From Nageia nagi (Eukaryota; Plantae; Pinophyta): a stretch of 64,000 nt of DNA. Shown here piece after piece: positions 1,431 through 63,374 of this stretch. The position numbers and the translations under genes are program-made. Position 1 is the stretch's first letter, and each line of letters opens with the position of its first letter. The DNA is taken from assembly GCA_050084985.1 (NCBI GenBank), contig JBITNC010000002.1, positions 12,152,001 through 12,216,000 of the forward strand. The letters run 5' to 3'. The notes beneath the pieces are model-generated. The model was not told the DNA's origin. It saw only the letters and a program-made list of their open reading frames with translations, and ran no database searches.

Positions 1431-2002
1431 AAGAAAAATACAAGCATTGAAATGAGAAACCTCCTAAAATGAATACATTCACACGTACATTTTGCAACAT
1501 GACTTATTTTGGAAGCCATGAGGTGAGGATAGGCAAACTAGAGCTTTTAAATTTGACAATCCAAATGGTGAAAAGTTTGTACTTCTCAATTGCTCCTAAG
1601 TCCTCTATTGGTCTGGACATAACTCCAATAGGTGGATAGGCATGTGTGTAGTGATACCACATGTTTGCACATCCATTTAAGGATTATTCTGATAGCTTAG
1701 GAGGATAACTTGAAACCTAATCAAGATTAATAATTTGTTCGATCCAATATGCATCATAACCTTAGAAAATAGTAGGTACTTTTTCTTGTGAGAGTATAAT
1801 ACTGACTAAGGTGAATTGGTTGAGGATTGGTAGTACTTGGTTTCCTCTTGTGTGGGCACCCAGGTGAAGACTTAATTTTAGATAAGAAAACAAGCTTCAA
1901 CAATGTCACTCTACATATACGGTTCTTGGTGATGATAAAAGTATTTGGGTACATAGGATATATGTTTGAGTTGTAAAATATTTGCACTTTGAATCAAATC
2001 AA
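1431..2002 (+). pseudogene. Decayed ~190-codon exon of unknown function upstream of gag (copy 1)
   Basis: Homologous to 18160-17599 on the minus strand. One frame reads NEYIHTYILQHDL..DNPNGEKFVLLNC..NSRYFFL.EYNTD.GELVEDW..ENKLQQCHST..LGDDKSIWVH..VVKYLHFESNQ with deamination-type stops. Followed by GTATGT(2003)...TGTAG(2096). Confidence 0.5.
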
Positions 2003-2099
2003 GTATGTCTTTATTAATTAAATGTAACATGTAAAACTTAATATATAATATTATTTATTGAATCACATGCTTATTATTTTTCATATTCTTATGTAGCAA

Positions 2100-5000
2100 A
2101 TGGAAGACTCTTTTTTACCCAAACACATTCTTGATGGTTTCAACTTTGGGATTTGAGAACCTTGAATGAGAGCTAAGTTGTAGGCAAGAAAGCTTTGGAA
2201 AATAATGAATGAGAACATTATACCTTCTATAGATAAGAAGACACTAGAGGCTTACAACACAAAGAATAATTTGGCAACCTCCATGATCTTCCATGTAGTG
2301 TCAGATGATGTGCTCTTGATGATTTTCTTTTTCAACCTTGACAAAAAAAGCTTGGGATAAACTTAAGCAAATCTACCTTAGTTCAATATTTTCAAGAAGG
2401 TTTACCATTCTCCAAAATTTACTTCAATCTCATCAAAATAAAGATGAAAATGTTACCATCTATTTGAACAAAATCATTGACCTAAAAATCCAACTTATTT
2501 CTTGTAGGTGCAATTGGATCAATGATGAGTTCATGGTCTTCATCATTATTCAAAGATTTTTCTCAAAGTTTGAAAATTTTATGATGATTATGGAAATAAG
2601 GCTTGATGATGAAGAAGAAGTCTTCTCCCTTAAGAACTTTTCTAGGCTGCTTTTGAAGCATGAGGAAACCCTTAACAAAAAAATGTTGATTTTTTTCTCC
2701 TAAGGATAATAATGTTGCTCTTGAAGCAACCAAAACTCTTTTCAAAAGAAGTTCAACCATTAAAAGAAATCTTATCCTTCTTCCTTCAAAAGGTTTGAGA
2801 AAAGAGGCAATGGAAACAATAGTAGTAGGAATGACAATAACAACCATTTCAAGTAAAGAGATGGAAAAGGCAAAACAAACAATCCATATCCTAAGGAAAT
2901 ATTTGATGGTAATTGTAACTATTGTGGTATCTAAGGTAATAAAGAAGTTGATTTCTACAAAAAGAAAAGAGAGAAAAATAATAAAGGTAATAAAAATGTA
3001 AAAAATTTCTAAACAAAGAAGAATATTCAAGCTGGTTTTGCTGTGGCACTCTACTCCACTTCTCACATCTTTTTATGTGATTAGATTGTTGACTCTAGTT
3101 GCACTAATCACCTATGTTTTAAAAAGAAAAAGTTTGATAACTTTCACAAGTATAGAAAAGATGCAATTATGATAGGTGATAACTCTATTCTTGAATTCCA
3201 AGGCATTGGAAGTGTGTTGATTCATAGAAAAGTTCTTAAAATATGCTCTATGTTCTTAAGCTTAGGATGAACCTTCTCTTCATGATTCAAGTTACTAGAA
3301 AAGGGCATTCATTTGAGTTCAACTCTCAATCTTGGTGCACGAAGAAAGGACTTACCACATTGATTAAAGGATCAATGAAAGATGATCTCTACATTATGGA
3401 TCAAATTCCATCAAAGATGTGTCTTGCTACAAGTGTGTGTTCTAGAGGCAATCTTTAGCACCAATGTTTAGGATACTTTAACCATAAGAGTATTCAAGTC
3501 ATGAAAGACTAAGAACTTATGAAAGGTTTGCCTTCAAGTTCTCCTTTAATTGGTCTATGTGAGAAATGCATTCTTGGTAAGATGCATAGACAAAAATTTA
3601 AAAAAAAAAAGGTAATAAGAGCATCTCAACCTGTTCAACTTATGCATTCAGATTTGATAGGTCCATTTTAGACTAAGTCATTTGGAGGAGCATCTTACAT
3701 CTTGACCTTCATTGATGACTTTAGTAGAATGACTTTTGGGTATTTACTTGAGTATAAAGATCAAACCTTTGAGAGTTTTAAGATTTTTAAGATCTTTGTT
3801 GAGAATCAAACTAACCTTAAAATCAAGATGTTGAGATCAAATAATGGGGGAGAATATAATAGCAATGAGTTCAATGACTATTGTGCTAAGTATGGAATTA
3901 AAATATAGTTTATGATTTCTTACATTCCTCAACAGAATGGTGTTACCAAAAGGAAAAATAAGATAATTATGGAGATGGCTAGATGCATGTTGGGTAATCT
4001 TCCTAATTTCTTATGAGATGAAGTAGTAAGTATTACTACTTATACCTTAAATAGGTGTCCCACAAAAGTTGTTCAAGGTAAAACTCCTCTTGAGGCATAG
4101 TCAAGAAGAAAACCTAACATTTCACACCTTAGGGTGTTTAGTTGTGAAGCATTCTCCTATATTATTTTTGAAAAAATGAAGAAGTTAGATAAAAAGGTTG
4201 AAAATGCATCTTTATGGGTTATGACAGTCAACATAAAGGCTATAGGCTCTACTCTCCATTCTACAAAGTCATGTTTATTTTAAAGGATGTAAAGTTCAAT
4301 GAAGTTCTTGAAAAATATAATTCTAATGAGGATGTTGATGATCTAGAGGAATCTTCAGTTACACCTAGCTGGTTAGATATTGATGTAGATAAGTCACCTC
4401 AGGAACAAAACTCTCCAACTCAAAGGGTAACAAGGAGTATGACCTTGAACAAATTCTTATTTTCTAAAATTGACAATAAGCATGAGCCTTTATCATTCAA
4501 ACAAGCTTCAAAGAATGAGTGCTAGATGGAAGCCATGAAAATGGAGTATGAGGTGCTTATGAAAAATAAAACTTGGGATTTGGTTCCTTATCTCAATGAG
4601 AAGAATGTGATTAGCAATAAGTGGATCTACAAGGTCAAGTTCAATTCTATTAGGGATATTAAAAAATACAAGGCAAAGTTAGTAGCCAAAGGATTTTCTT
4701 AGAAATACGGTGTAGATTATGAGAAAAAATTTTCTCTTATGGCAAAGATGCCTACTGTGAGAATTATCCTTGCTCTTTTTGTAGCTTAAGGATGAAAATT
4801 TTTTCAACTTGATGTCAAAAGTGCATTCCTAAATGGTGACTTAGATGTGGTAATTTTCATGAATCAATTAGAAGGGTTTATTATGGAAGGTAAAGAATCC
4901 TTTGTGTGCAAGTTAAAGAAGTCATTATATGGACTTAAGCAAGCACCTAAAGCTTGGTATAAGAATATTTCAAGGTATTTTTGCAAATATTGGATTCTCC

Positions 5001-6520
5001 AAGTATTTTTCTAACTCTGATTTATATGTGCTCACTCAAGAAAAAGATGTGGTCTTGATTCTCCTTTATGCAGATTATCTTTTGATTATTAGGAATAATG
5101 ATGAAATCATTCAAGAGTGCATATCAAAACTTAAGGTAACATTTAAAATGACTGATTTTGATCTTTTGCACTACTATTTTGGAATACAAATTCATCAATA
5201 CAAGGATTTTACTTATCTTAATCAAACTAAGTATATATCAGACATCTTACAAAAGTTTGAAATGAAGGAGTGTAGATACGTGACATCTTGCAAAAGTTTT
5301 TCAACTTGATGTCAAGAGTGCTTTTCTCAATGGTGATTTAAATGTAGAAATGTATATGATCCAATTAGAAGGTTTTGTTGTGGAAGGCAAAGAATCTCTT
5401 ATTTGTAAGTTAAAAAAGTCTTTGTATGGACTTAAGCAAGCACCTCAAGCCTAGTACAAAAAGATTTTAAGATACTTTAAGGACATTGGATTTGCTAAAT
5501 GCTTCTCTGACATAGATCTTTATGTGCTCAACCAAGGAAAAGATTTGATCTTGATTCTTTTCTATGTGGATGATCTATTGATTATAAGGAATAATATTTC
5601 CCTCACACAAGAGTGCATATCCAAACTCAAGGCAACTTTTGAAATGACAGACCTTGGTATATTGCATTACTACCTTGTATATAAGTTTACCAATACAAGG
5701 ATTGTACTTATCTTAGTCAATCTAAGTATATATCAAATACCTTGCAAAATTTTAGAATGGAGGAATGCAAACCTACTACAATCCCAGTCTCTCATGGAAT
5801 CACTTTATCTCTTAGTTCTAACTCTCAGTTGGTAGATGCTATGGCTTATACGAAACTAATTGGTAGTCTTATTTATTTGACTATATCCAAGCTGAATATT
5901 ACCTTTACCATGAATTTGATGTCTTGCTTGATACAAAAGCCATATGTTGAGCACCTTAATGTAGTTAAGCAAATTTTGAAGTGTGTTATGGGCACTAAGA
6001 ATCTTGCTCTCAAGTATGACAAGTTACCCTTATTTGTTCTCTTAGTATTCTCAAACTCTGACTATGAGGGAGATAGAGATGATTAAAAATCAACATCTTC
6101 TTATGTGTTTAGTATTATTTTAGGTGCTATCTCTTGGATTTTCAAGAAGCAACCTACTACTATTCTCTCCACCATAAAGGCTGAATATTATGCAATGTCA
6201 TTTGTAGCCTAAGAAGCCATTTGGTTGAGGATCTTCTAAAAAATATTAGGTATGAGCAAGTTTTTCCATCTCAAATTTCTTTAGATAATCACTCAGCTAT
6301 TGCTTTGGCAAAGAATCCTACTTTCCATTAAAGAACAAAGCACGTAGAAATCCAAGCCCACTTCATTAGAGAGAAGGTTTTGGATGGTCTTCTACACTTA
6401 CAATATTATCCATCAATCCTAAACTCTGCTGATTTTTTCACCAAGCCCCTTTCTAAAGCTCAATTTTGTACGCTTAGGGGTTCTATTGGGTTGGTGAATT
6501 TGCTTTCAAAAAGGGAGTAA
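2100..6520 (+). pseudogene. copia gag-protease-integrase-RT-RNaseH pseudogene
   Basis: ATG at 2100 (MEDSFLPKHILDGFNF). Protease IVDSSCTNHLC, integrase [36 protein letters not shown] and FYVDDLLI, RNaseH RTKHVEIQAHFIREK..ADFFTKPL. Many stops and frameshifts. Confidence 0.93.
4800..5770 (+). repeat. Diverged tandem duplication (~497-bp period) of the RT core
   Basis: TTTTCAACTTGATGTCAA(A/G)AGTGC at ~4801 and ~5298. Both units run through the YxDD-like motif to M(K/E)EC. Confidence 0.88.
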
Positions 6521-7567
6521 AGGTTGAATTCTTGTTGAATCCATTATAACATCTTCTGTATTAATAAAGTTGTTAGGCACTTTATTTTTTTATTTATATA
6601 CCTTACTTATACATTATTTTTTGGTGATTATAAGTAATATTTTGACATCTTAGTGATGACTTATAATGCAACACAAATCTAAGCACATTATATCAGGGAG
6701 AAAGTTCTTGATGGAACAACTACAAATCTGTCCATTTGAATTTGACTCTTTTGATTTATTCATTAGATCATTTTAGAAACTTTATTTTGTACACTTTGAA
6801 AGTTTCTTATAGTTGGTGAAGTTGTCCTCAAGAGGTAGTGAAGTTTGAATTCTTGTGTTGAATTTATGTCAAATGTGATGATAACTTCATCCCTAGGAGG
6901 ATATTTTATTGTATAATGTTGATCTTAAATGTACACCTTTATGATCATTTCACTCCATGTGAGGAAATCATGGTACATTTTGGTTTTGTTATCACTATGT
7001 GAGGAATTAGTATGTGTTTGTTAGCACTATTTGGTTATCCATATATGAGTAATTAATATGTGCATATGCTCTTTTTTTTATTGTTCATCAACACATGTTT
7101 CCAATATACAATAGATGACTATGAGTATTGGCTTGGCATCTTTATGATGATTTATAGTGCATCATTGATTAGTTTATGGATGGAATTACTTAGTTCATTT
7201 ATCTTGTGATTGATATGAATGTTTATATGGTGCATCTAATTAACCTTATTTGTGAGCTACTTGTAGCTTGTAGCTTTCATCTTGAGAAAGTAGGTTACTT
7301 ACTTTGGGTAGATAGGCTCATGGATGCTCACATGTCAAATTCATGATTGATCAACTATACTTACAATGAAATCAATTATGGTTAATGATTGTATTGTAAA
7401 CCATTTTATAAAATGGTATTGTATTGAGTCTCAAACTATGATCTTGCTTATTACTCAAAGATGTAAAAGTTCTCATCTCTACTTGTATCTCTATGGAGAA
7501 GAACTCTCTCTTACTCTCTCTTTCTTCTTTTCTCTATGCTATATCCCAATATTACATTAAGGGGGAC

Positions 7568-8040
7568 TATTAGAATTTGTAATGTAATATTGTGTAATAT
7601 TTCTCTTTAATGTAAATTCATTTAATGCTTAAAGTATCTTTAGATAGCTTAAAATATTAAGAGAATAAAAATAAAAAAATTATTAAAAATAGGTAAAGGA
7701 TTAAATATAGAAAAGAGATTAAATATAGAAATATCTTTAACCTTACCATTGGGTTAAAGGGAGGTTAAAGGGTGGGTTTCTTCTTATAAATAGAGAGGTA
7801 CCCTTCCTCTCATGGTACATGCAATATTGGAAGCAAGCTTTGCTATAGGTTTAAAGTTTGGAGAGAGAGGATAAATTCTATAAGAGAGGTCCTTGAAAAT
7901 AAGAAGATCTTAGTTAATGGACGTACTCCCAAGGAGGGAGGAACCACTTTATATCTTGTGTTATTTGTGAGATTAGTTTAAGTTATTGTGTTGATGTTGT
8001 AAGTGCCTTATTGAGATCGTGGTAGACTAAGAATTAATTC
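7568..8040 (+). repeat. 3' LTR of copia copy 1
   Basis: Begins T(A<G)TTAGA directly after the PPT. TATAAATAG near 7785. Shares GTACTC..GGAGGAACCACTT and TTGTGAGATT blocks with the 20476-20977 LTR. Right end uncertain. Confidence 0.7.
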
Positions 8041-12377: not shown

Positions 12378-12880
12378 TGTGAGAGTTGCAATATAAACTA
12401 AAAAACTCTATACTACCAAGATCTTATGAAAGCACACAATTCACATTTAAATAACTCTAAGAAGACAATCTCACAAAGATAACTCAAGATAAAAGTGGTT
12501 CCTCCAACTAGGGGTACATCCACTAACTAGATCTCACTTCATTCACAAATATTAACTCTTACAATTCTCCTATTCTCATATCTTAAACACTATCCTCTAG
12601 CATAACTTTACTCCATAAATTGGTGTGTGATACAAAAAGGAAGTCTTATATTTATAAGAAAAAAATTCCTCTTTGGATCATCCTTTTACCCAATGGATAA
12701 AGATATGACATGCAACACCCTTTTACCCAAGGGGCATGCTCATGACATGGAGTGTAGGACAAGTTATATTATCATATTCACTTAAATACTTAAAGTATCT
12801 ATTAATAACCTTAAGTATTAGTGAATTTACAAAGATGATTATTATAAAATCTTTACAATAATGCATTATACGTGCCAACG
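12378..12880 (-). repeat. 3' LTR of copia copy 2
   Basis: Direct repeat of 20476-20977, about 90% identical by manual count. Confidence 0.95.
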
Positions 12881-13619
12881 CTTCCTTTTAATGCAATATT
12901 GAGATAGAACGAATAAGAGAGAAGAAGAAGAGAGAGTAAGAGAGTTCTCCTCCAAACATATACAATCGAAGATGAGAACTTTTTACATATTTGTAAAGTA
13001 AGTAAGATCTAGTTTAAGACTTACTATTTACCATTTTAGCAAATGGTTTACAATACAATCATTAACTACAACTGATTTTAATCTACATAAAGTAACCATC
13101 CAACTAGAAGTCATGATGAGTCTCTGTAAGCCTACACACTCAAAGTAAGTACCTGCAATTTCAAAAGAACCTGCAAGTCATAAGTAACTCATATAATAAG
13201 ATCAGTTAGATGCAACTTATTCATATCAACAAGGATAGATGAATCAAACAAATGCCATCATAAAATAATCAATGATGCACTATAAGTCATCACAAAGATG
13301 CCAAGCTAAAACTCATAGTCACCTACTGTATTAAAAAATATGTGTTAATTATCATTACAAAATAGAGCATAACAAAATGCACATATGAGTGCCTCACATA
13401 TGGATAATTGAATAGTACCAAAAGACACATATGAGTTTCTCACACATGGATAACTGAATAGTGCTAGATTGATCAATTTTTTACTCTAAAAGTTTGTACA
13501 ATAATTTTCTCATGCAAAGTGAACTTACCATGAAAGTGTATAACAAAATCAACACTATACAACATAAAATCCTCTTAAGGGTGAAGTTGTCATCCTAAAC
13601 ATGAATTCAACACAAAAAT

Positions 13620-16600
13620 TCAAACTTCACTCCCTCTTAAAGGCAACTTCACCAACATAATAACATCTCTAAGCTTACAAAATTGAGCTTTAGGAAGGGG
13701 TTTGGTGAATAAATCAATAGAGTTTAAGGTGAATGGATAATACTCCAAGTGTATGATACCATCAAGAACCTTATCCCTGATAAAATAAGCATGGATTTTC
13801 ATATGTTTTATTCTCTGATAGAACACTAGAGTCTTAACCAAAGAAATAGTTAACTTTCAGAATATGCCTTAGCCAAATAGCTTTCTATGCTATAATAGAA
13901 GTGGCTTGGTAGTCAACTTCTATAGTAGAAAAGAAATAGTAGGTTGCTTCTTGAAAGTTCAAGAGATAGCACTTGAACTAATGCTAAAAATATATGTAAA
14001 GGTTGATTTTCTATTATCTCTCTCTCCTCCCTAGTCAAAATCTAAGAACCTTGAGAGAACAAATGAGGGCCACGTAAAATACTTGAAAGTAAGATCTTTT
14101 ATCCCTACAACATAATTCAAGATTTGCTTAACAATATTGAGATGCTCAATATAAGGTTTTTACATGAATCATGCCATCAGATTCATTACAAAGGTAATAT
14201 TTGACCTATAAATAGTCAAATATAAAAGACTACAAATTAATTACCTGTAAGCTGTAGCATCAGCCAACTGAGAGTTAGCTAAAAGAAATAGTGATTTTAG
14301 GAGAGATTAAGATCACAACATGTCTACACTCCTCCATTCTAAACTTTTATAAGATGTATGATATATACTTAGATTGACTAAGATAGGTACAATCTTTGTA
14401 TTGATACACTTACATTCCAAAGTAGTAGTGCAAGAGACCAAGATTAATCATTTCAAACATTGCCTTGAGTTTGGATATGCACTCTTGAATAATTTTATCA
14501 TTATTTTTAGTAATTAGAAGATCATCCATATAAAGGAGAATTAATACCATGTCTTTTCTTTGATTTAGTATATATAGATCGAAGTTAGAGAAGCATTTAA
14601 AGAATCCAATGTCTGTAAAGTATCCTAAATTTTTTTTGCACTAGGCTCTAAGTGCTTGTTTAAATCCATACAATGACTTCTTTAGTTTTCACATAAAAGA
14701 CTCTTTGCCTTCCATAATAAACCCTTCTAGTTGATTCATAAAAATTTCTACATTTAAATCACCATTGAAAAATGCTCTTTTGACATCAAGTTGAAAAAAT
14801 TTTCATCTTTGAGCTGCAGAAAGAATAAGAATAATTTTGATAGGAGGCATCTTTACCATGGGAGCAAAGGTTTCTTCATAATCTACATCATATTTCTAAG
14901 TAAAACCTTGAGCTACTAACCTTGCCTTATATTTTTCAATATCTTCAACTGAATTATACTTGACCTTGTAGATATACTTATTGCCAGTCACATTCTTCTC
15001 ATTGAGATAAGGAACCAAGTCCCAAGTTTCAAATTTTATAAGCATATTATATTCCACTTTCATGGCTTCCACCTAGCACTCATGCTTTGAAGCTTCTTTG
15101 AAAGATGAGGCCTCACACTTATTGTTAATTTAAATAAATAAGGATTTATTTAAGGTCATGCTCCTAGTTACCCTTTATGTTGAAGAATTTTGCTTCTAAG
15201 GTGACTTATTTACATTAATATCCAACTAGCTAGATGCAACTGATGAATCATTTGGATCATCGACATCCTCATTAGAAGCAAATTCTTCAAGAAGTTTATT
15301 GAACTTTACATCTCTAAAAATAAACACTCCTTTATAGGATGAAGAGTAGAACCTATAGCCTCTATAATGATTATCATAGCCCATGAAGATGCATTTTTTA
15401 GCTTTTTTATTTAATTTTTTTTTTTTTAGAAATAATGTAAGAGAATGCTTCACAACCAAACACTATAAGATGTGAAATGTTAAATTTTCTACCTGACCAT
15501 GCCTTAAAAAGAGTTTTACTCTTAACAACTTTTATAAGACACTTATTCAAGGTGTAAATAGCAATGCTCACAACTTCACCCCATAAGAAACTAAGAAGAT
15601 TACTCAACATGCATCTAATTATTTCTATTATTATCTTATTTTTTCTTCCAATAACACCATTTTGTTGAAGAGTGTATGAAATTGTAAGCTACCTTTTGAT
15701 TCCTTACTTAATGCAATAGATATTCAACTCATTGCTATTATATTCTTTCCAATTATCTGATCTCAACATCTTGATTCTAAGGTTAATTTGATTTTCAATT
15801 AAGGCTTTAAAATTCTTAAAACTCTCAAAGGTTTGATCCTTATGCTTAAGAAGATAGCCAAAATTCATCTTATTGAAGTCATTGATGAAATTCAAGATAT
15901 AAGATGCTCTTTCAAGTGACTTAGTTTGAAATAGACCCATCAAATCTGAATGCATAAGTTAAAAAGGTTGAGATGCTCTTTTTGCTTTTATTTTTCAAAC
16001 CTTCATCTATTCATCTTATCTAAGATGCATTTCTCACATAAACTAATTGAAGGCAAACTTTTTATAAGTTTTTGATTTTTCATGACTTGAATACTCTTAT
16101 GGTTAAAGTGCTCTAAACTTGATGCCAAAGATTGCCTCTAAAACACATATTTGTTGCAAAACACATCTTTGTTAGAACTTGATCCATAATGTAGAGATCA
16201 TCTTTCACTGATTCTTTAACTAATGTGGTAAGCCCTTTCTCCATGCACCAAGATTAAGAGTCGAACTTAAAAGAATACCTTTTTCGTACAACTTGAATCA
16301 TAGAGAAAATATTCATCCTAAGCTTAAGAATATAGAACACATTTTCAAGAACCTTCTCATGAATCAACACACTTTTAATTCCTTAGATTTCAAAGATAGA
16401 ATTATCACCTATCATAATTGCATCATTTCCATACTTATAAAAAATTTTAAATTTATATTTTTCAAAGCATAGATGATTAGTGCAACCAGAGTCAACAATC
16501 CAATCAATCGAAAAAGTATGATTCATGGAGTAAACTGCAATAGTAAACCCAGCTTTTATATTCTTCTTTCTTTTGAAATTTTTTACATTTTTATTACCCT

Positions 16601-17485
16601 TGTACTTTTCTTCTCTTTTCTTTTTGTAGTAATTAGTTTCTTTGTGACTATGGATGTCACAAAAGCTACAATTTCCATCAAAATTTACCTTAAGATTTGG
16701 TTTGCTTACCTTACCTTTTTCATTTTTTTGCTTGAAATGGTTATTGTTACCATTATTATTGCTATTATTGTAGTTACCCTTTTTCTCAAAAATTTTGGAG
16801 AAAGAAGGATATGATTTTTTATAATGATTGAACTTCTTCGTCAAAGGAGTTTTGGTTGCTCCTAAAGAAACATTATTATCTTTTGAAGAAGATATCAACA
16901 CCTTTTTATTAAGAGTTTTCTCATGCTTCAAAAGGAACCTAGAAAGGTTCTCAAGGAAGAAGACTTCTTCTTCATCATCAAGCTTAGTTTTAATTACCTT
17001 CACTAAGTTACCAAACTTTGAAGAAAGGCTTTGGAGAATGATGAAGACCATGAACTCATTATTAATCTAATTGCATCTATAAGTAATAAGTTGGATCCTT
17101 AGGTCAATGATGTTATTCAAGTATATGGTTACATTTTTATCTTCCCCTTTGATGAGATTGAAGTAAATTTTAGAGAATAGTAAATCTTCTAGAAAACTTT
17201 GATCCAAGGTAGATTTGGTTAAGCTTATCTTAAGCTTTTTTTGTTGAGATTGAAGTTGAAATTCATCATGAGCACATCATATGAAATTGCATGAAAAATC
17301 ATAGAAGTTACCAATTTATTCTTCATGTTGTAGGCCTCAAGTGCCTTCTTATTAGGAGGAGCAACAAGGTTCTCATTCATAATTTGCCAAAGCTTCCTTA
17401 CGTACAACTCAGCTCTCATCTGAGGTTCCCAAACTTCAAATTTGAAACCATCAAGAATGTGTTTGGGTAAAAAAATGTCTCCTAT
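13620..17485 (-). pseudogene. copia gag-pol pseudogene (copy 2)
   Basis: Zn knuckle CSFCDIHSHKETNY, WIVDSGCTNHLC, integrase HSDLMG..FINDFNK..IKMLRSDN, RNaseH KHMKIHAYFIRDK..DLFTKPL..LRGSEV. Start codon mutated to ATA at 17485. Confidence 0.93.
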
Positions 17486-17598
17486 TTGCTACATAAGAAT
17501 ATGAAAATAATAAATATGGTTTATAAAATAATATTACATGGTTTAGATTTAATCCAAGTAAATCAACTATACATGTTAAATTTAGTAAAAGAACATGC

Positions 17599-18160
17599 TT
17601 AATTTGTTTCACAAGTGCAAATATTTTACAACGCAAATATATATCCCATGTACCCAAATACTTTTCTCATCACTAAGAATCAGAGTAGAATGACATTGTT
17701 GAAGCTTATTTTTTAATCTAAAATAAGGCCTTCACCTAAATGCTCGCAAAGTGGAGTCCCGGTACTATCAATCTTCAACCAGTTCACCTTGGTCAGTATT
17801 ATATTCACATAAGAAGAAGTACCTACTATTTTTCAAAGTTATGACATATTTGATTGGCCAAATTAGTAATGTTGATTAGGTTTCAAGTTGTCCTCCTAGG
17901 TTATCAAGATAATCTCTGAATAGATATGCATACATGTGGTATCACTACACACATGCTTGTTCACCTATTGGAGTTATGTCCAAATCAATAGAAGAATTAA
18001 AGGTAATTGAGAAGTACAAACTTTTCACCATTTGGATCGTTAGACTAAAGGTTCTAGTCTATCTGTCCTCACCTCATGGCTTCCCAAGCAAATCATATTG
18101 CAGAATGTATGTGTAGATGCGTTTATTTTAAAGGGTTGCTCATTTCAATGTTTATGATTT
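17599..18160 (-). pseudogene. Decayed ~190-codon exon upstream of gag (copy 2)
   Basis: Reverse complement aligns with 1431-2002 and keeps CAG/CAA at two positions where copy 1 has TAA. Intron-like segment 17598-17489 (GCATGT...TGTAG). Confidence 0.5.
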
Positions 18161-19259
18161 TTTTATAAGTAAATAAAGCAAAATACGAAACATGAAGTAA
18201 AAGAGCATAAGTAAAAAAAATCATCCATTTGTAATTTTTAAAACCTAAGAGTCCAACAGGTTTTGTTTACAACTTCTAAAGGACATCTTTACATCATTCC
18301 TTATTTGCACAAGTCCATTCCATATTTTGCATAATAAAAAAGAAAAAATAGAAAGTCATTAAATGCATCTTAACTTAAAAAAAAATTAAGTAATAAACAT
18401 GCATCTTTCATAAAAGATTTTAAGTAATAAGCATGCATTATCTATAAAATATTTAAAATTTTAAACATGCATCATTCCTACTCAAGAACTAGTCCATTCA
18501 TAAGAATTTAAAGCAAACACTTTAAAAGGCATGCATCATTTCTTTAACTTAAAAAAATTAAGTAAGAAGTATGCATCTTTTAAACAATGAGTAATATCTA
18601 AGAAATTTAAAGTAATACACATTCCATATTTTGACATAAAGATTTTAAGTAAAAAATCATATAGAATTTTTTCCATTTTTTTACTTAAAAGAATGATCTC
18701 ATAAAAAAAAATAGCATTAAAAAGTTTTGCACTAGTGTCTTTAATTACTTTTAAGTAAGATGAGAAGAAAATGCTGATATTTTGACATTTCAGAAATTGC
18801 ATTTGTACCTAAGTAAATGCAATTTAAGTAGAACAAAAAATATTCTAAGATTAATGTTAAGAAGTATCTTGCAACTTCAAAGTGTAAAATTACAATTTTT
18901 TTTTTTGCCATTATCTAATAACCTCAAAAGTATTCCTCTATTTTTACTTAAAAATATTTAAGTAAAAAAAAAGCATTGAGCATTTCACCAACAAACTTAA
19001 ATGTTTAGAAAAAATTACATGTAAAACATTAAAAAATTAATACAAACAAAAAAATCATTCCAAAATGCTTTTAATGCAATTCATGATGAAAATATGGAGT
19101 ATAGAGTATACGTTTGTTTCATTTGATGAACATTAATTACTTACTCACCAGCTATTCCTATTAAATGCATCTACCCATTTCATACTGAAAAGCACTCCAT
19201 GCAAGTAGAGCATATTAAAAAAAAGGCTTTTATGGCTAAAGAAAAAAAAAAGAGAGAGA

Positions 19260-22321: not shown

Positions 22322-24944
22322 TAGACAATTTCTTCAATTTTCCATAAATCTCCTGTGTTTGTGGGTGTGATCTGTCCCCTACAAGAAAAGCGTGTACCCT
22401 TTTGTCAACTTCAATCCAACTACATCCAGGTGTCTTCTTGATTCCTCTATCCGTTATCAATATCCTTACTCTTTGAACATCATCCCAGCTGCCCAATTCA
22501 GCATAAATATTTGAAAGAAGAACATAAGATGGAGCATATTCAGGCTCCGACAAAAAAAGGATTGTTGCCACAAATTCACCTATTCCTACATTCTTATATG
22601 ATCTACAAGCACCAAGCAGACACATCCACACATCAAATTCAGGTTTTATGGGCATCTTGAGAGTGAAGTTCAAAGCTTCCTCAAGATAGCCTGCACGGCC
22701 AAGAAGGTCAACAATGCATGTATAATGATTCATCCCAGGAACAATGCAATAACAGTCACTCATGTTATTAAAGTATTTACAGCCCTCATCCACTAGACCT
22801 GCATGGCTGCATGCAAGTAGAACACATACAAAGGTTATGCTGTTAGGGTTGGTTCCCCAGAGCTTCATTAGATCAAAGAGTTTAAGGGCATCCTTGCTGT
22901 AGCCATGAATTGCATATCCTCCAATCATTGCATTCCATGAAACTGTGTTTGTATCATGCTCCTTGTCAAACAATTTTCGGGCCCTGCGTATTCTTCCACA
23001 TTTTGCATACATGTCTATCAGGGCACTCACAACCACAACATTCGATGCAAAACCATTTTCAACTACTCTTTGATGGATGTCCATACCTTCTTCTAGAGCT
23101 CCCATGGTCGCACAAGCTGGAAGAATGCTGGCAAAGGTTACAGAGTTTGGATTTACATCTGACAATTGCATCTTCTTAAAAGTCTCTAGAGCCTTTTCAT
23201 AAAACCCGTTTTGTGTATATCCTCCGATCATTGCATTCCATGAGACTGCATTTCGATGAGGCATTTTGTCAAACAATTCAAAAGCCCTTTCAAGGTAACC
23301 GTTTTGTGCATATCCTGCGATCATCGCAGTCCATGAAAATGTGTCTGCATCATGCATCTTGTCAAACAATTCCTGGGCCTCGTGTATTTTTCCACATTTT
23401 GCATACATGTCTATCAGGGCATTCATAACCACAATATTCGATGAGAAACCATTTTCAACTACTCTTTGATAGATGTCCATACCTTCTTCTAGAGCTCCCA
23501 TGGTGGCACATGTTGAAAGAATGCTAGCAAATGTTGTCGACTCTGGCTTTACTCCTAACAATTGCATCTGCTTAAAAGTCTGTAGAGCCTTTTCAGAAAA
23601 TCCATTTTGTGCACATCCTGCGATCATTGCATTCCATGAGACTGCGTTTCGATGAGGCATTTTGTGAAACAATTCACAGGCCCTTTCAACGTATCCGTTT
23701 TGTGAATATCCTGCGATCATTGCATTCCATGAGACTACATTTCGGTGAGGCATTTCATCAAACAATTCATGGGCTCTTTCAATGTATCCATTATGTGCAT
23801 ATCCTGAGATCATTGCATTCCATGAAACTGTGTCTGCATCATGCATCTTGTCAAACAACTCCCGGGCCTTATATATTCTTCCACATTTTGCATACATGTC
23901 TATCAGGGCATTCACAACCACAATATTCGATGAAATACCATTTTCAACTACCCTTTGATGGATGTCCATACCTTCTTCTAGAGCTCCCATGGTGGCACAT
24001 GCTGGAAGAATGCTGGCAAAGGTTACAGAGTTTGGTTTTACATCTGACAATTGCATCTGCTTGAAAGTCTCTAAGGCTTTTTCAGGAAATCCATTTTGTG
24101 CATATCCTGCGATCATTACAGTCCATGAAACTGTGTCCGCGTTATGCATTTTGTCAAACAACTCACAGGCCCTTTCAAGGTATCCATTTTGTGCGTATCC
24201 TGCGATCATTGCAGTCCACAAAACTGTGTCCGCATCATGCATCTTGTCAAACAATTCGCGTGCCTTTTCTACGCTTGCGCATTTTGCATACATGTCTACC
24301 AGGGCATTCATAACCACACCATGTGACAGAAATCCGCTTTTAAAGAGTTTTTGATGTATGTATACACCCTGTTGCAAATCTCCCAGTTTTGCGCATGCTT
24401 TGAGGACGCTGGGAAAGGTGAATTGATCTGATTGGACTACTGCCGCTGTTTGTTGTATTTGGTTAAACAGTGTCAATGCCTGTCGAGGAAAGCCATGTTT
24501 TTGGTAACCTAAAATTATCAAATTCCACGAGAAGATGTCTCGTTCAGTCATACAGTCGAAAACTTCGCGGGCGTCCGTCAAACTTCCGCTTTTGACATAC
24601 ATGTGGATAAGTCTGTTTTGCAGAAATTTGTGCGTTGAAGGGTCAAATTTAAGTCCGATGCGATTGATGAGTGAATGAAGGAGCTTGGCCTCTGGAAGGG
24701 CATTGTTGGCGATGCAGGTCTGCAGGAGTTGAAGACATGTTGAAGAGCGTAGAGTGTAGTGTGTGTCTGTATTTGTAGTATGCAAAATGTGCATTGCGTC
24801 CTTCAACTGCCCGTCTCGACAGAGTTGACTGAGAGTTATATTCATATCATTTTGGCGAGTAAGTGTTGAGATTGTATGATTGTTGTGAAAACAAAATACC
24901 ATCGCCTTCAAAATCGAAGGAGATGGAGGTGGTCTTATGGCCAT
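22281..24944 (-). CDS. PLS-class pentatricopeptide repeat protein (~21 PPR motifs + E1/E2 + PG box; effectively E+ type), putative organellar C-to-U editing specificity factor, 887 aa
   Basis: Intact intronless ORF with P/L/S/SS motifs (ALIDMYAKCG, VSWNAMIAGYAQNG), L2 LACSHAGLVDEG, S2 HYTCIVDLLGRAG, E2 YVLLSNIYA and PGCSWIEV..HP. CpG-rich 5' end. Confidence 0.95.
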   Translation of the reverse strand: MAIRPPPSPSILKAMVFCFHNNHTISTLTRQNDMNITLSQLCRDGQLKDAMHILHTTNTDTHYTLRSSTCLQLLQTCIANNALPEAKLLHSLINRIGLKFDPSTHKFLQNRLIHMYVKSGSLTDAREVFDCMTERDIFSWNLIILGYQKHGFPRQALTLFNQIQQTAAVVQSDQFTFPSVLKACAKLGDLQQGVYIHQKLFKSGFLSHGVVMNALVDMYAKCASVEKARELFDKMHDADTVLWTAMIAGYAQNGYLERACELFDKMHNADTVSWTVMIAGYAQNGFPEKALETFKQMQLSDVKPNSVTFASILPACATMGALEEGMDIHQRVVENGISSNIVVVNALIDMYAKCGRIYKARELFDKMHDADTVSWNAMISGYAHNGYIERAHELFDEMPHRNVVSWNAMIAGYSQNGYVERACELFHKMPHRNAVSWNAMIAGCAQNGFSEKALQTFKQMQLLGVKPESTTFASILSTCATMGALEEGMDIYQRVVENGFSSNIVVMNALIDMYAKCGKIHEAQELFDKMHDADTFSWTAMIAGYAQNGYLERAFELFDKMPHRNAVSWNAMIGGYTQNGFYEKALETFKKMQLSDVNPNSVTFASILPACATMGALEEGMDIHQRVVENGFASNVVVVSALIDMYAKCGRIRRARKLFDKEHDTNTVSWNAMIGGYAIHGYSKDALKLFDLMKLWGTNPNSITFVCVLLACSHAGLVDEGCKYFNNMSDCYCIVPGMNHYTCIVDLLGRAGYLEEALNFTLKMPIKPEFDVWMCLLGACRSYKNVGIGEFVATILFLSEPEYAPSYVLLSNIYAELGSWDDVQRVRILITDRGIKKTPGCSWIEVDKRVHAFLVGDRSHPQTQEIYGKLKKLSSGGVYSKYSTCVA

Positions 24945-56420: not shown

Positions 56421-57609
56421 ATATATTGTTGTCTACTAGGATAATAATAATTTATGTTTTTGCTATATATGAAGGCTACCAATTAAATATCTTGTGGAAT
56501 TTTTGATACAAGTTTTGGGTCCCTATATAAAAAGCCCCTTTAAATTTTTACCATTACCAAAAAAAAAATAAAACATTACAATTAAAAAATTAAATATAAA
56601 CTAATAAAACATTACAATTAAAAATTTGCATATATAAAAATAAAACTTAAAAACATTTGATGAAATTTAAATTACCTATGTTATTCGTATCACCTACTTC
56701 GGGGCTACTTCTGATTCCAATTGAATTTGCTTCCCTAGTTGCCTTGTTCGGGGCTACTTGTGATTCCAATTATAGGAGGCTTCATCTTTTTAGTTGGACT
56801 ATCTCCATATCGCTTTTAGATTATGTGGGGATTAATTTTCTTCTTCTTTTCTTATACTTAACTTCAAGAGTGTCCTCCTTCAAAGTTTCCTTCTCCAACG
56901 ATGTTTCCTCTAAAACAGACAAACCATATACTTCCTTCAGCACAAACAGTGTGTCTCATGCCCTAGCTACCTCTATCTTCCGAATCTCTAAGATTGAATT
57001 CGACTCCTCCCTCCTGTATTTTTTTATCATCTCTACAACTTGGGTGCTTTTCTCGTTCGTTTCCCTACTACCATGCACTAGAAACAATTGGCTTCTAGCA
57101 CTTTTCCACCTTGACTTGTTATAATGCCTTTCATGGTAAATCTTGCCTAAGTGCATGTTAGGGAATATAATATGATTGAGTGTCATTATGGCTACACCAT
57201 CATTCACATTTTCCTTCCATAATGATTTGTGTATTAGTGTTAGCCATACGGATTGAAAATATAGCTTCATTTATGAAGCTACATGTGCCTTGTCACTTTG
57301 CATCAAACTACCCTTCTCCCTCTTGTTGTGACTAACACAAGACGCCCCAAAATCCTGCCCTCAACAACTCTTGTCCATGTAGTATCATGTTTTTGTCACA
57401 TCCAACTTGAGAAGCTTAGCGCTACCTGGTTATCATGCCTATCGTCTCAAACCTAAGCATTATCATTCACCTAGTCTTGGCCATGTTAAGCAAAGTCTGA
57501 AATTCCAAAAAATGACTAAGTCTGGAAAGCCAAAAGTTGAGTTTAGGTGAACTAGGGGAACCCAAGTTGAGCCGGAGCCAAGTCAGGTGAAATTGAGCCA
57601 CTTCCAAGT

Positions 57610-58400
57610 CCAGCGCATGCCTCAAAAAGACAAAATTTTGTCTTTTTGGGATGTGTGCTTAGGTTTGGGAGATGTCCAGGTTGAAATGAAAAGTAAGAAA
57701 GGTGAGCCTGGGTACTTCCAAGTCAAGTGCACCCCTCAAAAAGACAAACTCTTATCTTTTGGGGGCATGCACCCAACTCCAGAGGCTGCTCGGGTCAAAT
57801 TCGGAAATGGAGAAGTGAAGTTGGAGCATCCAGGAGATGAGCGCATGCTTCAAAAAGACAAAATCTTGTCTTTTGGGAGTATGTGCTCAAGGTAGAGAGG
57901 CATCTAGTTTGGTCCCCTGATGAAATTTGGTTAAGGCATGAAGCCTCGAATCCAGTATCCAATTCAAACATGACCAAAGGGGCAGGCGCATGGTCTAAAA
58001 AGACAAAATCTCGACTTCTTTAGGCATGCACTTGACCCAGGGAGACATCAGGTTGGCAAAAATGGTAAAATTCGACTAAGTCCTAATCGCAGAAGGCTAG
58101 AAACAAGTAAAAATGGGCAAGCGCAACCCGACGCATGCCTCAAAAAGAAATGTTTTTGTCTTTCTAGGACATGCACCCAAACAAGCATGATTGGAAAGTT
58201 GGGCGCACGTTTCAAAAAGACAAAAGCTTGACTGTTTGAAACATGGGCCTGGCCTGGGAAGTGTTCTGGATGAGCTTGAACACGAAGGTCAAGATGCACA
58301 AGTGGGAGAGCCAGGGTGTTGAACGACCAAAGAGCATGCACTTCCAAATTGAGCACATGATCCATAAAGATATTTTTTTGTCTTTTCTAGGCATGCGCCC
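57610..58400. repeat. Array of seven ~46-bp imperfect palindromes
   Basis: Consensus GCGCATGCCTCAAAAAGACAAAA-TTTTGTCTTTTTGAGGCATGCGC at ~57613, 57728, 57841, 57986, 58131, 58203 and 58353. Confidence 0.85.
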
Positions 58401-58555
58401 ACCCTGAGGACACTCAACCACCCCCATGTCCAATTTCTAACGGAAATGCAATAAATTCAAAGCTGGCACACATCCTTAGGTCAGCCATCTGGACAGCTAG
58501 GATGGGGTTTCAAGATGCCTGGCCAACTAGGGTTTTGAAGGTGACCTAATTTGGC

Positions 58556-58563
58556 TATAAATA
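58556..58563 (+). promoter_or_regulatory. TATA box upstream of the embedded ORF
   Basis: CTATAAATAC followed by a pyrimidine-rich leader, ~220 bp before the ATG at 58784. Confidence 0.55.
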
Positions 58564-58783
58564 CAAGGTCAGAGACTCATTTTTCTCAAATTTAAATCAC
58601 TCTCCTCTTCATTTCTTGTGCCAGAATTGCAGAAGAAGACCATATTTCGGGTTTCGAATCCACCCTAGCACCTTTCCAACCACACATGGGGCTTTTTGAA
58701 GACAAGACTTGGACAACGTTGGGGGAGCTTCACCTCGAAGGACCTGCACATCACTTTTGGAGATACCCATCAACCACTCAGAT

Positions 58784-61700
58784 ATGATGACAAGTTCGAG
58801 AAGTAGTACGACCAAAGAGATTGCAAGGGACTTGGAGATGTTGAGACAAGACTGTAATCTCTCGATATGTGAGAGGCGAGAGCCCCTACCACAAGGGGCC
58901 AAATTTTCAAAGAATGGATTTGCCACTATCGGAGATATAGATTGGCAAAAGGTAGATCACATGCAAATGAGGGAAAAGATACGTAACATGGAGATTAGCA
59001 TATTGAAACAGGATGTTGTGTTCTTCCTAGGTCTCTCCACCGCCACTTTCCCAGAATTGTGCATAGAAGTGAGCCAGCATTGGAAGAAGGTCGAGAGGGT
59101 GCTCAAAGACATTAAGGGGGATGTCATCATGGACTTTGGCCTTGAGGCCATCAAGAAGGAATTTCAATGGATGGCAGAAGGGAGTTTCGACTACAGTTAA
59201 GCGGAGTCAATTGCTTGTAACCAAGGGACCAACAAAGGGGCCATTGCCATAAGGGATTGCATGGCCTCAAGGGAAATGTTCTCATCAATGCTGCTCACAG
59301 CAACTTCTACCCCATTGTATAGTTTATGATCTTGATGTTGTCAAGGATCCTTGGAAAAGAAGATGGTTCTAAGTTTAATATGGAGTTCTTTGGCTTAATC
59401 GTTGAGATGGCGAGGGGAAGGAAGATTAAATAGAGCAAGGTGTTGAGTAATACCCTTGCAGAGCAGTTGTCATCAATGGGCACCTCATGCAAATTCTATC
59501 TCAACTCATATTTGGTATACTTGTTGCTTCATGGCAAACATAGACCCACGGCTCAAGGAGAGGTAGCATGGATCGAGAAGGGAACATATGCCATAGGGAA
59601 ATGTTACCCCAAGTGGAAGATTAAAAGAAAATGGGATAGTTTCTTCATAAGAAACAATGGATGGGAGTATGAGATCTACAAGGAGTTGAAGGGTGAAATC
59701 ACAGTGACTAGGAGCTCAAACTCATCATAGGATGCATTAAGGAAGCATGGGGAATTCTTCATACATCACCAACACTATTCCTATATCAGGATTTATGGAT
59801 CAGCCGTGGAGCCATGTCAGTTGCCCATATATGTTACTAATAGACTAGTCTTGATGGAGATGATGAGGTAGTTGGCTTACTTAAATGAGCATGTGTGGCA
59901 CAAGAAATTGTCCACCTCAAATTTGTCAATCATAGTGGGAGAATATCAGTGCAGAACTTAGGCGGATATGGATTCAATGGAGGAAATGGATAGATTCCAC
60001 TTCAAGAAGTTGACCACCATAGACCACTATGATCTAGAGCATAAGATTCATGGCTTCTATACAAAGGAACGAAAGAGGGCTTATGAGCACAAGCCACTTG
60101 GAAACGAGGGGCTATTCAGGAACATGAGCAGTGAGGTGGAGATGAGAAAGAATTGTGCTAGGATGCAAGAGGAGGCTTATAAGCAACAACAGACCATGGA
60201 GACCACTATTGACAACAGGTTGTCACAACCAAAGGGGAAGAGACAATAAGAGTCCACATCCAGAGTTACACAGTTCCCTTTGACGAATGAAGAACCTATT
60301 AGCCAATATGCTTTAATGAGTGGTAAGAATCTAGTTGAGACAGTGGTTGAGCGAGTGAGGGCGACCATATATGAATATGATATGAAAGAGCTTGAGAACA
60401 TGGTGGCCAACAAGGTAGTGAGGTGTGTAAGGAACAAGGAAAAAGATCCATCGCCTGCAGAACAACCACCTAAAGGGCCAATTCAATGCCCATCTACAAT
60501 CATTCCACCATCAAGGTCCTCATCCTCTAGCCCTTTATACGAACCAAATGATAGCCAAGGAAATGAACAAGGGGAGGGGGGCGAACAAGAGGTGAATACA
60601 ACTCAACCAAGTTAGATCCCAGATACTTGGGAGTAGGAATCTTTAAGAATTTTAGTAGTTTGGAATCTCGTCTCTTCGAAGCCTTCTACCTCTTGAAGGA
60701 AAGGGAAGAGTCCAACCTCCGAATCAATCCCCAAGAGAGCCCAGTTAAAGAGAACACCTTAGTCATGGTCATCAGAGGTTCCCGATAAAAATGTTGATGA
60801 GGAGGCAAGGCCCTCGAAAAGACCCCAAAAAGAGTGTTACCATCAATCATGAGCCAATCATCAAGACCCACCAGTTGTCACCTAATGATGAGTGGAGTGT
60901 AGATATGGAGGAAGACTTGATGTTTTCAATATGGACGTCGGGAAGGAGTTTGGAATTGATGAGGTCAATGATCAGGTTGGAGAGAGCTCCACTCGTCCAG
61001 AGAAGAGTCAAACATATGTATACTTGGTCGACAATGCAGTTCATATCAAGACATTGTAAGGGCAACCTACAATGGCCTGGAGACCTCAAACAGATAAATC
61101 AAATCATCAATATAGGTCCCATTGGCATCGTTGGTAGGAAGCATGCAATCAACACAATCGCCAAGGATGGGCTGCAAAAGGAGAAAGAGATCAAAAGCCT
61201 CAAGAAGGAGTTAGCCGCCCATAGGAGATTGACTAGAGAGATCGAGTCCGCAAAGGTACCCCCTGAAGAGCTTAAGAAGCTGAAACCTTTGAAGGAGGGG
61301 ATGGTTTTCGTAAAGCAAGAGATGATTGACGATATATTGACAGTGGTGACATAGTTCATAGATGCTTTGCAGAAGTTCTCAATTGAGGAGCAGAAGTTGA
61401 AAGATATTGTGGCCAACAGAGTCAGTTTCCTCATGAGCTTAGAGTATCGGAGACCTATCATTGAGAGGTTCTAGATGACTAAAGATCAGAGACCAAAGGA
61501 TGCCAGCTTTTGTGATGATTATTGGTTTTATTTAGGGGTGGTGCAATAGATGGCTACTTACTTTCAAGAAGTGAGTAAGGAGGTCACTAAGATTAACAAT
61601 AAAACCAACTCAAGCCTAGAACAAATGGATTTCGAAGTTAAGTTTCTTGAGGAGGGCACCACCATCAAAGAGACGGACCTGGTAGTCACGGAAGTGAGAC

Positions 61701-61945
61701 ATCTACTCCAAAGCCTATGCATGACTGAGGATATCAACATGTACCAGACAGAAAGCCATCTTAAACACATGTTAAGGGCTCACGCTTGGAAGATTAAGAT
61801 GCAGAGGATGATCAACAAGGTTGAGCATTGAGTAGCAAGGAACATTGCGAGGACCTCGTAGATGATACGTGGGTTAGAGTTCATAGCCAAGTTCTTGGAT
61901 GAGGAATTTGAAGACAAAGTTGCAGCCTCGAGGCCACCATCATAG
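58784..61945 (+). pseudogene. Decayed ~1050-codon retroelement accessory gene (globular N-half, low-complexity linker, coiled-coil C-terminus); not gag or pol
   Basis: ORF-track fragments at 58709, 59440/59968/60280 (same frame) and 60791/61550 (same frame) join through deamination-type stops and at least 2 frameshifts. Purine-rich coding bias throughout. Confidence 0.75.
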
Positions 61946-63374
61946 TCATTATTTTATTTTATTTTTATTTTCAAGAAAATATATTTTATTTCTACAAAAA
62001 TACTTTTTTATTATTATTTTATTCCCAAACTTGTGATGGATGAGGATTTGCTCCCACAAGTTTGGAAGGGATATTGTAACGCCATGTGGCATTTTATTAT
62101 TGGACCACTTATGTTTCTCTTGGTAAACATAATTAGGGTTAGGGCAACACTTAGGGTTGCCACAAAAACTATTTATAGCCCATTTGGGCTCATTTTTAAG
62201 GGGATTAGATATTTTGCACTTGTGAGAAACTTAACTCCTATTTTCAATTAAACAAGTTGCTCCATTTGTGAATGTAGTATAGCTTCAAGTAAATGAATGG
62301 TGAATGCTCTCATTGTTGGAACTATGAACATGTTGTGAATGCTTTGTTGTATATCTTGAATGAATGACTGATATTGCTATCTTGCTTTGCTCACGTTTGC
62401 TTGGTTCATTTCATAAACCTTGTGTTGAGGTGGATAAGAGAATTTGTTGAATACCCTTTGAAGTAACCATTGAGTAAGACGTGATGTGCAATAGTTCATA
62501 GTTTGCATGTTAGACTTGTGTTGTTTGGGATGACTTCTTTTATGTCGACTTCACTCCATCATTGAAGACTTAACCACGATCTACCCTATTGCCATCCTTG
62601 CCTTTGCTTCATGCTCCTTGCACGAGTCCATTCGTGTTGATAGTTAGCGAGAAGGATACAAAGTGCATGGAACTCACATCAAGCTCTAGGAAAGTAGATC
62701 CCAATCTTTGCACCAATCGGTGAGACCACATGCACTTGTGCTCAACACACATACCATTGTCTAGTCTACACCCTTTTTCTTTATTTTCCACTTTTTTTTC
62801 CACGGCTTTCGCAACCCTATTTTTATTTTTGTTTGAGAAACAACCATTTTCTGGAAACAAGGACACTCCAAGTCCTTGATTAACAAATTTCATTTGAGTT
62901 GGAAACAGCTTCAAACATCTTAGCCAATCTCCTGAGTTTACTCTTGCACCCATTCACGAGCCCTTTGAGGTAACCAATCCTCATAGCAGGTAGGGGTCAC
63001 GCCCTTCCACCTAGTTGTTGGTGTCTTTCACAAGCCTTACAAGTCAATTTGCCTATCGACGAGGTAGGAAAGAAGAAGCTCCCAACACCTCCCTACCACC
63101 CTTGTAATGTTTTATTATTTTATATTAGTTTACATTTAAATTTAATTGTAATGTCTTATTATTTTATACTTAATTTTCATATTTTTCTAATAATTTATAT
63201 TATATTTAAAATTAATATCTTTAATATTTTAATTATATTTAATTTTAATGTTTTTAACATCTAATTATATTTAATTTTAGTATATCAAATTTTATGTCGA
63301 ATTTTTTAAACATGTCAAATTCGTTTTGAACTTCAAGAGTGTCAAACTCAAATACGAACTCAAACTTGACTACC

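Follow-up and report, generated by a model that had tools for sequence, protein, structure and literature searches.

A solo long terminal repeat of a TatII-type Ty3/gypsy family in Nageia nagi containing a decayed accessory gene

Accessory open reading frames (ORFs) in or overlapping the U3 region of a long terminal repeat (LTR) are known from MMTV (sag) and HIV (nef), which are vertebrate retroviruses with shorter ORFs and proteins unrelated to the one described here. In plants, a review places accessory ORFs in the internal region of the element (PMC7264820; this and the other sources below are cited from excerpts). The extra ORFs of Ogre, Retand, TatIII, and Athila elements (PMD/Transposase_28/Athila) are conserved, under selection, and often near repeat arrays, and most lie between pol and the 3' LTR (PMC7264820, PMC11963269). 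ORF0 of Retrosat2 is located upstream of gag-pol (PMC3485330). In CRM group A centromeric retrotransposons coding sequence does overlap a plant LTR, but what enters the 3' LTR is only the end of the polyprotein; these elements have a polypurine tract (PPT) and lack an independent gene driven by a promoter of its own (PMC3059260). The present element comes from a 64,000-nucleotide stretch of Nageia nagi DNA (assembly GCA_050084985.1, contig JBITNC010000002.1, positions 12,152,001 to 12,216,000 of the forward strand), referred to as the window. It belongs to a TatII-type Ty3/gypsy family, is a solo LTR, and holds an accessory ORF preceded by a TATA box. Solo LTRs arise by recombination between the two LTRs of an element. 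In contrast to the Ogre, Retand, TatIII, and Athila ORFs, this ORF lies inside the LTR and has no Pfam match above the cut-off, although it likely belongs to the same broad fold group. No plant LTR with a whole accessory gene was found in the literature, subscription papers not covered, and Repbase-type entries or supplements could already show one.

An initial annotation, made from the letters of the window, had proposed a giant solo LTR with TGTTG...CAACA ends, a 5-bp target-site duplication (TSD) with one C>T difference, and no internal LTR pair. The ends and the duplication are as proposed (Table 1), and no internal LTR pair is present among the repeats displayed for the window. Searches of the 4.3-Gb source genome returned matches to the unit at 29 other loci with 76–87% identity (31 of 11,519 candidates scored), and a protein search returned at least 132 copies of the ORF (132 scored of 22,647 candidates). 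Of 60 examined loci, 14 retain the two TG...CA termini together with at least 90% of the ORF and are termed near-complete copies. Ten of these 14 have a TSD with no more than one mismatch. The TSD is a perfect 5 bp in four copies, has one mismatch in six (the window copy included), and has two in one. The other three show a PBS (primer binding site) in place of the 3' TSD.

The unit can be identified as an LTR because its 3' end is followed, after a gap of 2–8 nucleotides, by a tRNA-Asn PBS at 27 places, against 0 for a control pattern. This PBS, TGGCGCTAGAAGGAGG, is complementary to the 3' end of the host tRNA-Asn(GTT) plus CCA. A second LTR lies within the fetched range for nine of the 27 PBS-anchored elements, giving the paired direct repeats around PBS and gag-pol that the initial annotation had proposed to look for. 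Four of these two-LTR elements have perfect outer TSDs (GTATG, GGTTG, GGTTC, and TATAG). No 3' LTR was found within 22–42 kb for elements E06 and E26.

It could be argued that the unit is not an LTR, and that it is either a separate element or part of an element whose short LTR starts at TGTAAC (62076), with the ORF in the internal region. The absence of a purine tract before all 11 scored 3' LTR starts, described below, favors this reading, but it is contradicted by the PBS junctions and by direct repeats that occur in pairs on either side of gag-pol, bounded by outer TSDs. The short-LTR form was rejected since, among 44 matches to the last 1.2 kb of the unit, not one starts at 62076. An origin of that position from a relic PPT is without support, as the purine run of the GGAAGGGAT stretch is not conserved among the copies. 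Other copies have the termini of the window unit and TSDs of their own. The non-LTR reading is considered extremely improbable, and an LTR with a gene inside nearly certain.

It is common for one LTR of this family to have inserted into another (loci L075, L084, L139, L141, L146, and L157, among others).

The accessory gene is carried in both LTRs of full elements. Element C2:271,060,455-271,098,564 is bounded by the TSD GATCC/GATCC. Its 5' LTR adjoins the PBS and contains the whole ORF, interrupted by an insertion, and approximately 87% of the ORF is present in its 3' LTR. Identity between the two LTRs is 81–86%. ORF sequence is also present in both LTRs of three more elements (L156/L183/L200, L188/L180, and L133/L246), with deletions in the 3' copy of each. 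In element E04 (TSD GGTTG), the same fused remnant of the N- and C-terminal parts of the ORF is present in both LTRs. Large parts of the ORF occur in five of the 27 PBS-abutting LTRs, or six when one interrupted by a nested LTR is included, and most of the others are 2.4–3.5-kb forms without it. More generally, many family members have LTRs of 2–3.5 kb that lack the ORF and its TATA box and retain the palindrome array and the tail.

The proposal of two gene copies per element holds for ORF sequence, but not for the many members with short LTRs, which have lost the ORF. It had also been proposed that every solo LTR retains the gene, which would then outlast deletion of the transposable element. 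The DNA does persist in solo LTRs, but no intact copy was seen. Because a solo LTR is unable to replicate and the ORF within it decays, a benefit to the family is not demonstrated, only persistence of the DNA.

The ORF runs from 58784 or 58787 to 61945, in agreement with the decayed frame of approximately 1050 codons first annotated, and the conserved start is the second ATG at 58787. The window copy has roughly 15–20 premature stops, and its reading frame changes at least twice, near 59.3 kb and at 60.8–61.05 kb. The encoded protein has an N-terminal globular domain of approximately 480 amino acids, a low-complexity linker, and a helical C-terminus. The dN/dS comparison among copies suggested in the initial annotation was made against four natural stop-free pieces that together cover the ORF. 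Median dN/dS values over the four segments are 0.21, 0.24, 0.28, and 0.19 (n = 46, 48, 55, and 63), from pairs that have references in common, contain a few overlapping loci, and carry no correction for transition bias. The third codon positions are the most diverged, and the window copy has values of 0.17–0.34. Sister LTRs of one element diverge by decay only and were used as the control; they gave 0.66, 0.59, and 0.57, with nearly flat divergence across codon positions. Because the medians of 0.19–0.28 stand against 0.57–0.66 in the control, the gene was maintained while the family transposed. These values show former purifying selection on an ORF that is now decayed in every copy seen.

The palindrome array, the TATA box, the T/A-rich tract, and the R/U5-like tail of the initial annotation are all present (Table 1). 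The palindrome units start at 57612, 57726, 57840, 57985, 58130, 58202, and 58352, and six of the seven fold at z ≤ −2.3. The TATA box reads CTATAAATAC and is located at approximately 58556. The region of this box is present in nine of nine ORF-bearing LTRs and in three of 24 short LTRs. The region of the second promoter-like module, module 2, is present in 23 of the 24 short LTRs and in six of the nine ORF-bearing LTRs. Several short LTRs without the upstream TATA box belong to TSD-flanked two-LTR elements with gag-pol. Because such elements exist, module 2 would be the genomic promoter and the gene would lie in U3. The claim of an accessory gene inside U3 is thus upheld as to the LTR, and its U3 part, which follows from the short deletion forms, is highly probable.

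Two observations on module 2 count against this placement. The TATA-like motif that had been annotated at 62169 (CTATTTATAG) is present and conserved, but forms a perfect TATA on the minus strand only. In addition, the module 2 region was not found in three of the nine ORF-bearing LTRs. The gene could instead lie in R or U5, with the TATA box at 58556 starting the genomic RNA and module 2 serving as an antisense promoter. The upstream box is a canonical plus-strand box, and the minus strand of module 2 reads as GCCCA/TGGGC boxes with CTATAAATAG and AACCCTAA repeats, which would suit such an arrangement. It would, however, require a first DNA product of reverse transcription of 4.5 kb, and the upstream TATA region is missing from 21 of the 24 short LTRs, several of them in TSD-flanked gag-pol elements with two LTRs. 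Placement in R or U5 is accordingly judged improbable.

The minus-strand motifs at 62130–62190 are presumably site-II and telo-box elements, and this segment may be an antisense or bidirectional promoter facing the ORF.

Table 1. Coordinates of the solo LTR, its target-site duplication, and its parts in the window
Feature	Position	Strand	Basis
5' TSD CCTCT	57319..57323	+	one C/T difference from the 3' copy
Solo LTR, 5764 bp, TGTTG...CAACA, TatII-type Ty3/gypsy family	57324..63087	+	copies, PBS junctions, TSDs
Palindrome array, 7 units of 47–48 bp; candidate binding sites for the ORF product	57612..58398	.	repeat and fold analysis; retained in LTRs without the ORF
Accessory-gene TATA box with a pyrimidine-rich stretch downstream of it	58555..58564	+	conserved in 41 mapped copies
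Decayed accessory ORF, approximately 1050 codons	58787..61945	+	homolog alignment, copies, predicted fold of a homolog
T/A-rich tract downstream of the stop; may mark the accessory transcript's 3' end	61946..62025	+	conserved in copies
Second promoter-like module (module 2): TTAGGG repeats, CTATTTATAG, GCCCA/TGGGC boxes; likely genomic-RNA promoter	62130..62190	.	found in 23 of 24 short LTRs
R/U5-like tail (0.9 kb); in 5' LTRs the tRNA-Asn PBS begins 5–6 nucleotides later	62191..63087	+	PBS junctions
3' TSD CCTCC	63088..63092	+	pairs with CCTCT

The internal region of the family is 6.6–7 kb in length. In E04, Pfam matches occur in the order Retrotrans_gag, RVT_3 (aRH), RVT_1, RT_RNaseH_2, and rve. 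The aRH likewise precedes RT in the C2 element, and RVT_3 lies upstream of RVT_1 in L126 and L095. PR has no Pfam match and was placed by eye, giving the order gag-PR-aRH-RT-RH-INT. An aRH between PR and RT is the order of TatI (club-mosses) and TatII (gymnosperms) (Neumann et al. 2019, PMC6317226). The TatII row of that source comprises 27 elements of 8.3–18.1 kb, with a tRNA-Asn PBS in 15%. The present family agrees with this row in its PBS, 5-bp TSD, and element size (12–18 kb), and the aRH position is a further likeness (PMC6317226, PMC4408406). Two LTRs of 5.8 kb and an internal region of 6.6 kb add up to 18.2 kb, next to the published range. On domain order, PBS, and size the family is classified as TatII-type, with the aRH position shared by TatI.

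The differences from TatII concern the ORF and the PPT: the excerpts of PMC6317226 and PMC4408406 place no extra ORF (eORF) inside the LTR and do not mention a missing PPT. Lineage II, which corresponds to TatII, is stated to have no eORF (Ustyantsev et al. 2015, PMC4408406), and the TatII row lists eORF-5'F in 23% and eORF-3'F in 26% of its elements (PMC6317226). Such near-equal shares are what an LTR-borne ORF would give if it were scored once on each side. An ORF in the LTR could therefore explain why TatII has been described both as lacking eORFs and as having equal 5' and 3' shares.

The 3' LTR starts were examined for a PPT. Eleven starts, picked without use of the motif described next, were scored, and none is preceded by a PPT; the purine fraction is 0.2–0.3 in 20 nucleotides and the longest purine run is 2–4 in 60 nucleotides. 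All 11 are preceded by a T/G-rich tract ending in TTT(T)A(G/A)C plus three pyrimidine/A bases. The same motif is present at two more starts (E16 and L246), and a pattern search with it gave 24 such starts. Plus-strand priming may occur at this conserved T/G-rich site rather than at a PPT, and a role of the aRH in second-strand priming is a guess. The missing PPT implies an unusual second-strand primer, and annotation tools that depend on a PPT could miss such elements. No report of a Tat element without a PPT was found in the literature, subscription papers not covered.

The T/G-rich motif is often doubled (L095, L104, L126, L130, and L246, among others) and resembles a plant 3' splice site.

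A second family has the same layout. Its unit, L187:1753-8592 (G000:C6:170,750,254-170,757,093), is 6840 bp in length, is nested in another LTR, ends in TATTG...CAACA, and is flanked by the TSD GTATC/GTATC. It contains a TATA box, an ORF, and an array of different palindromes of approximately 50 bp. DNA similarity to the window unit extends over 29 nucleotides only, and the ORFs share 35–39% protein identity. Further copies are present at L080, L099, L115, L119, and L198. No PBS-linked copy of this family was found, as six pattern matches look like chance, and the unit is described as solo-LTR-like from its termini, TSD, and layout. Because so diverged a family shares it, the arrangement of LTR, gene, and array is older than one family.

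No Pfam family matches the ORF pieces or their homologs above the cut-off, and PF09331, PF10536, and PF20167 reach it in 0 of 143 family members. A profile search returned 358 relatives at E ≤ 0.001, including an intact protein of 1010 amino acids with a similar layout by eye; a homolog search among longer proteins found none. One homolog, P0026, is 29% identical to the window ORF over 197 amino acids (E 5e-25) and has a predicted fold with pLDDT 89.5. In an exhaustive structural alignment with 48,161 chains, P0026 matched VANC21-DNA (9LNK_A) with Z 8.2 and rmsd 4.5 over 235 residues at 7% identity, a borderline match made with a distant homolog as query, since the typical best Z of 7–8 for this tool can be unspecific. 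It is the only match above Z 2.8, the score of the next chain. A PDB sequence search gave one match at E 1.9, that is, no detectable similarity to PDB chains. Atlas searches with the N-terminal domain gave clusters of PMD, Transposase_32, and DUF1985 at 0.83, a weak lead, and searches with whole proteins gave unnamed clusters or nothing. PMD has been linked to the DUF1985 domain of VANC (bioRxiv 10.1101/2024.09.27.615353; PMC13547354).

The guess in the initial annotation of a PMD/Transposase_32-like protein is thus favored by the predicted-fold match and the Atlas leads, with weak profile support (given below). By the predicted fold of its homolog, the N-terminal domain may be VANC/DUF1985/PMD-like. 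VANC21 is encoded by VANDAL21, a Mutator-like DNA transposon, and the element described here is a retrotransposon. Both would encode a protein beside repeated non-coding motifs (PMC5735166), and the coiled-coil region of VANC21 (PMC13547354) can be compared with the helical C-terminus here. The targets here would be palindromes of approximately 47 bp. VANC binds repeated motifs that diverge along with the protein (PMC5735166), and the separate palindrome of each family fits this co-divergence. Whether the accessory protein is an anti-silencing DNA binder is an evenly balanced question.

A young, abundant element (L205-L224 and L270-L273; 117 near-identical matches scored) carries an intact PMD frame of approximately 593 codons opposite a 429-codon frame. 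Paired PMD ORFs 7 kb apart were considered as LTR-borne genes and rejected; two loci are head-to-tail tandem copies of this unrelated element, 6.8–7.7 kb in length and over 99% identical. Weak Transposase_32 matches at 15 genome loci (L225-L239) represent a family distinct from the LTR ORF.

The account that is slightly favored is an LTR with a whole accessory gene and its own TATA box, likely in U3, whose product is likely a VANC/PMD-fold anti-silencing factor acting on the array of the same LTR. The genomic RNA would start at module 2 (approximately 62.2 kb), and each replication would place a copy of the accessory gene, taken from the 3' LTR, in both LTRs. The gene would be transcribed separately from the TATA box at 58556, as its own promoter in U3. 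Its product would bind the neighboring palindromes and keep the LTR active, and short-LTR variants without the ORF, which keep the array, would be served by it in trans. The window copy was left as a solo LTR with a 5-bp TSD by LTR-LTR recombination, an established mechanism.

Besides the points made above on module 2, the dN/dS pairs, and the VANC21 match, several results weigh against this account. No intact ORF was seen among the copies examined (the longest stop-free piece is 449 amino acids in the loci fetched to that point), nor any element with two complete ORFs among those examined. A PMD match in Pfam occurs in only one of the 143 family members, at E 0.023 and below the cut-off. The model of a close-family protein is poor (pLDDT 45), and Foldseek against PDB and viral structures gave nothing at E ≤ 0.001, in a second look as well. 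Profile-profile comparison with PMD and Transposase_32 is in register, with probabilities of 1% and 9% that were reached by one of 40 and none of 40 shuffles, respectively. Function does not follow from a shared fold, and host PMD proteins have roles both in silencing and in opposing it.

The gene could also lie in the LTR and encode a protein with another role, such as a transcriptional activator, an integration tether, or an RNA-handling factor, with the array unrelated to it. The link to VANC is at the level of fold only, the extra ORFs of the Tat lineage are of unknown function (PMC4408406, PMC6317226), and identity between sister LTRs is about 80% in the array against 80–81% in the ORF, so that the array bears no mark of having been shielded from methylation-driven decay. 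Against this stand the convergence of three leads on the PMD/DUF1985/Transposase_32 group and the pairing of the ORF with its own palindrome array in each of two diverged families. Another role is regarded as rather unlikely. As a tentative extension of the anti-silencing account, the gymnosperm-type TatII LTR might be an anti-silencing cassette, with a VANC-like gene and its target array in U3, duplicated in each transposition, co-diverging between families, serving variants without the ORF in trans, and replicating without a PPT.

The function of plant accessory ORFs is a long-open question, and here a whole gene that was under selection is located inside the LTR in two diverged families. 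The ORF and its adjoining family-specific array offer a concrete protein-target pair for VANC-like anti-silencing in a retrotransposon. If the anti-silencing account is true, the LTR likely worked as a self-contained module for reactivating the element. For annotation, solo LTRs of 5.8–6.8 kb resemble stand-alone genes and call for caution.

Other repeats are present in the window. Positions 1375-7593 and 12855-18217 are inverted copies, approximately 6 kb in length, of one repeat with about 80% identity. Positions 22866-24446 contain a tandem array with spacings of 93 and 303 bp.

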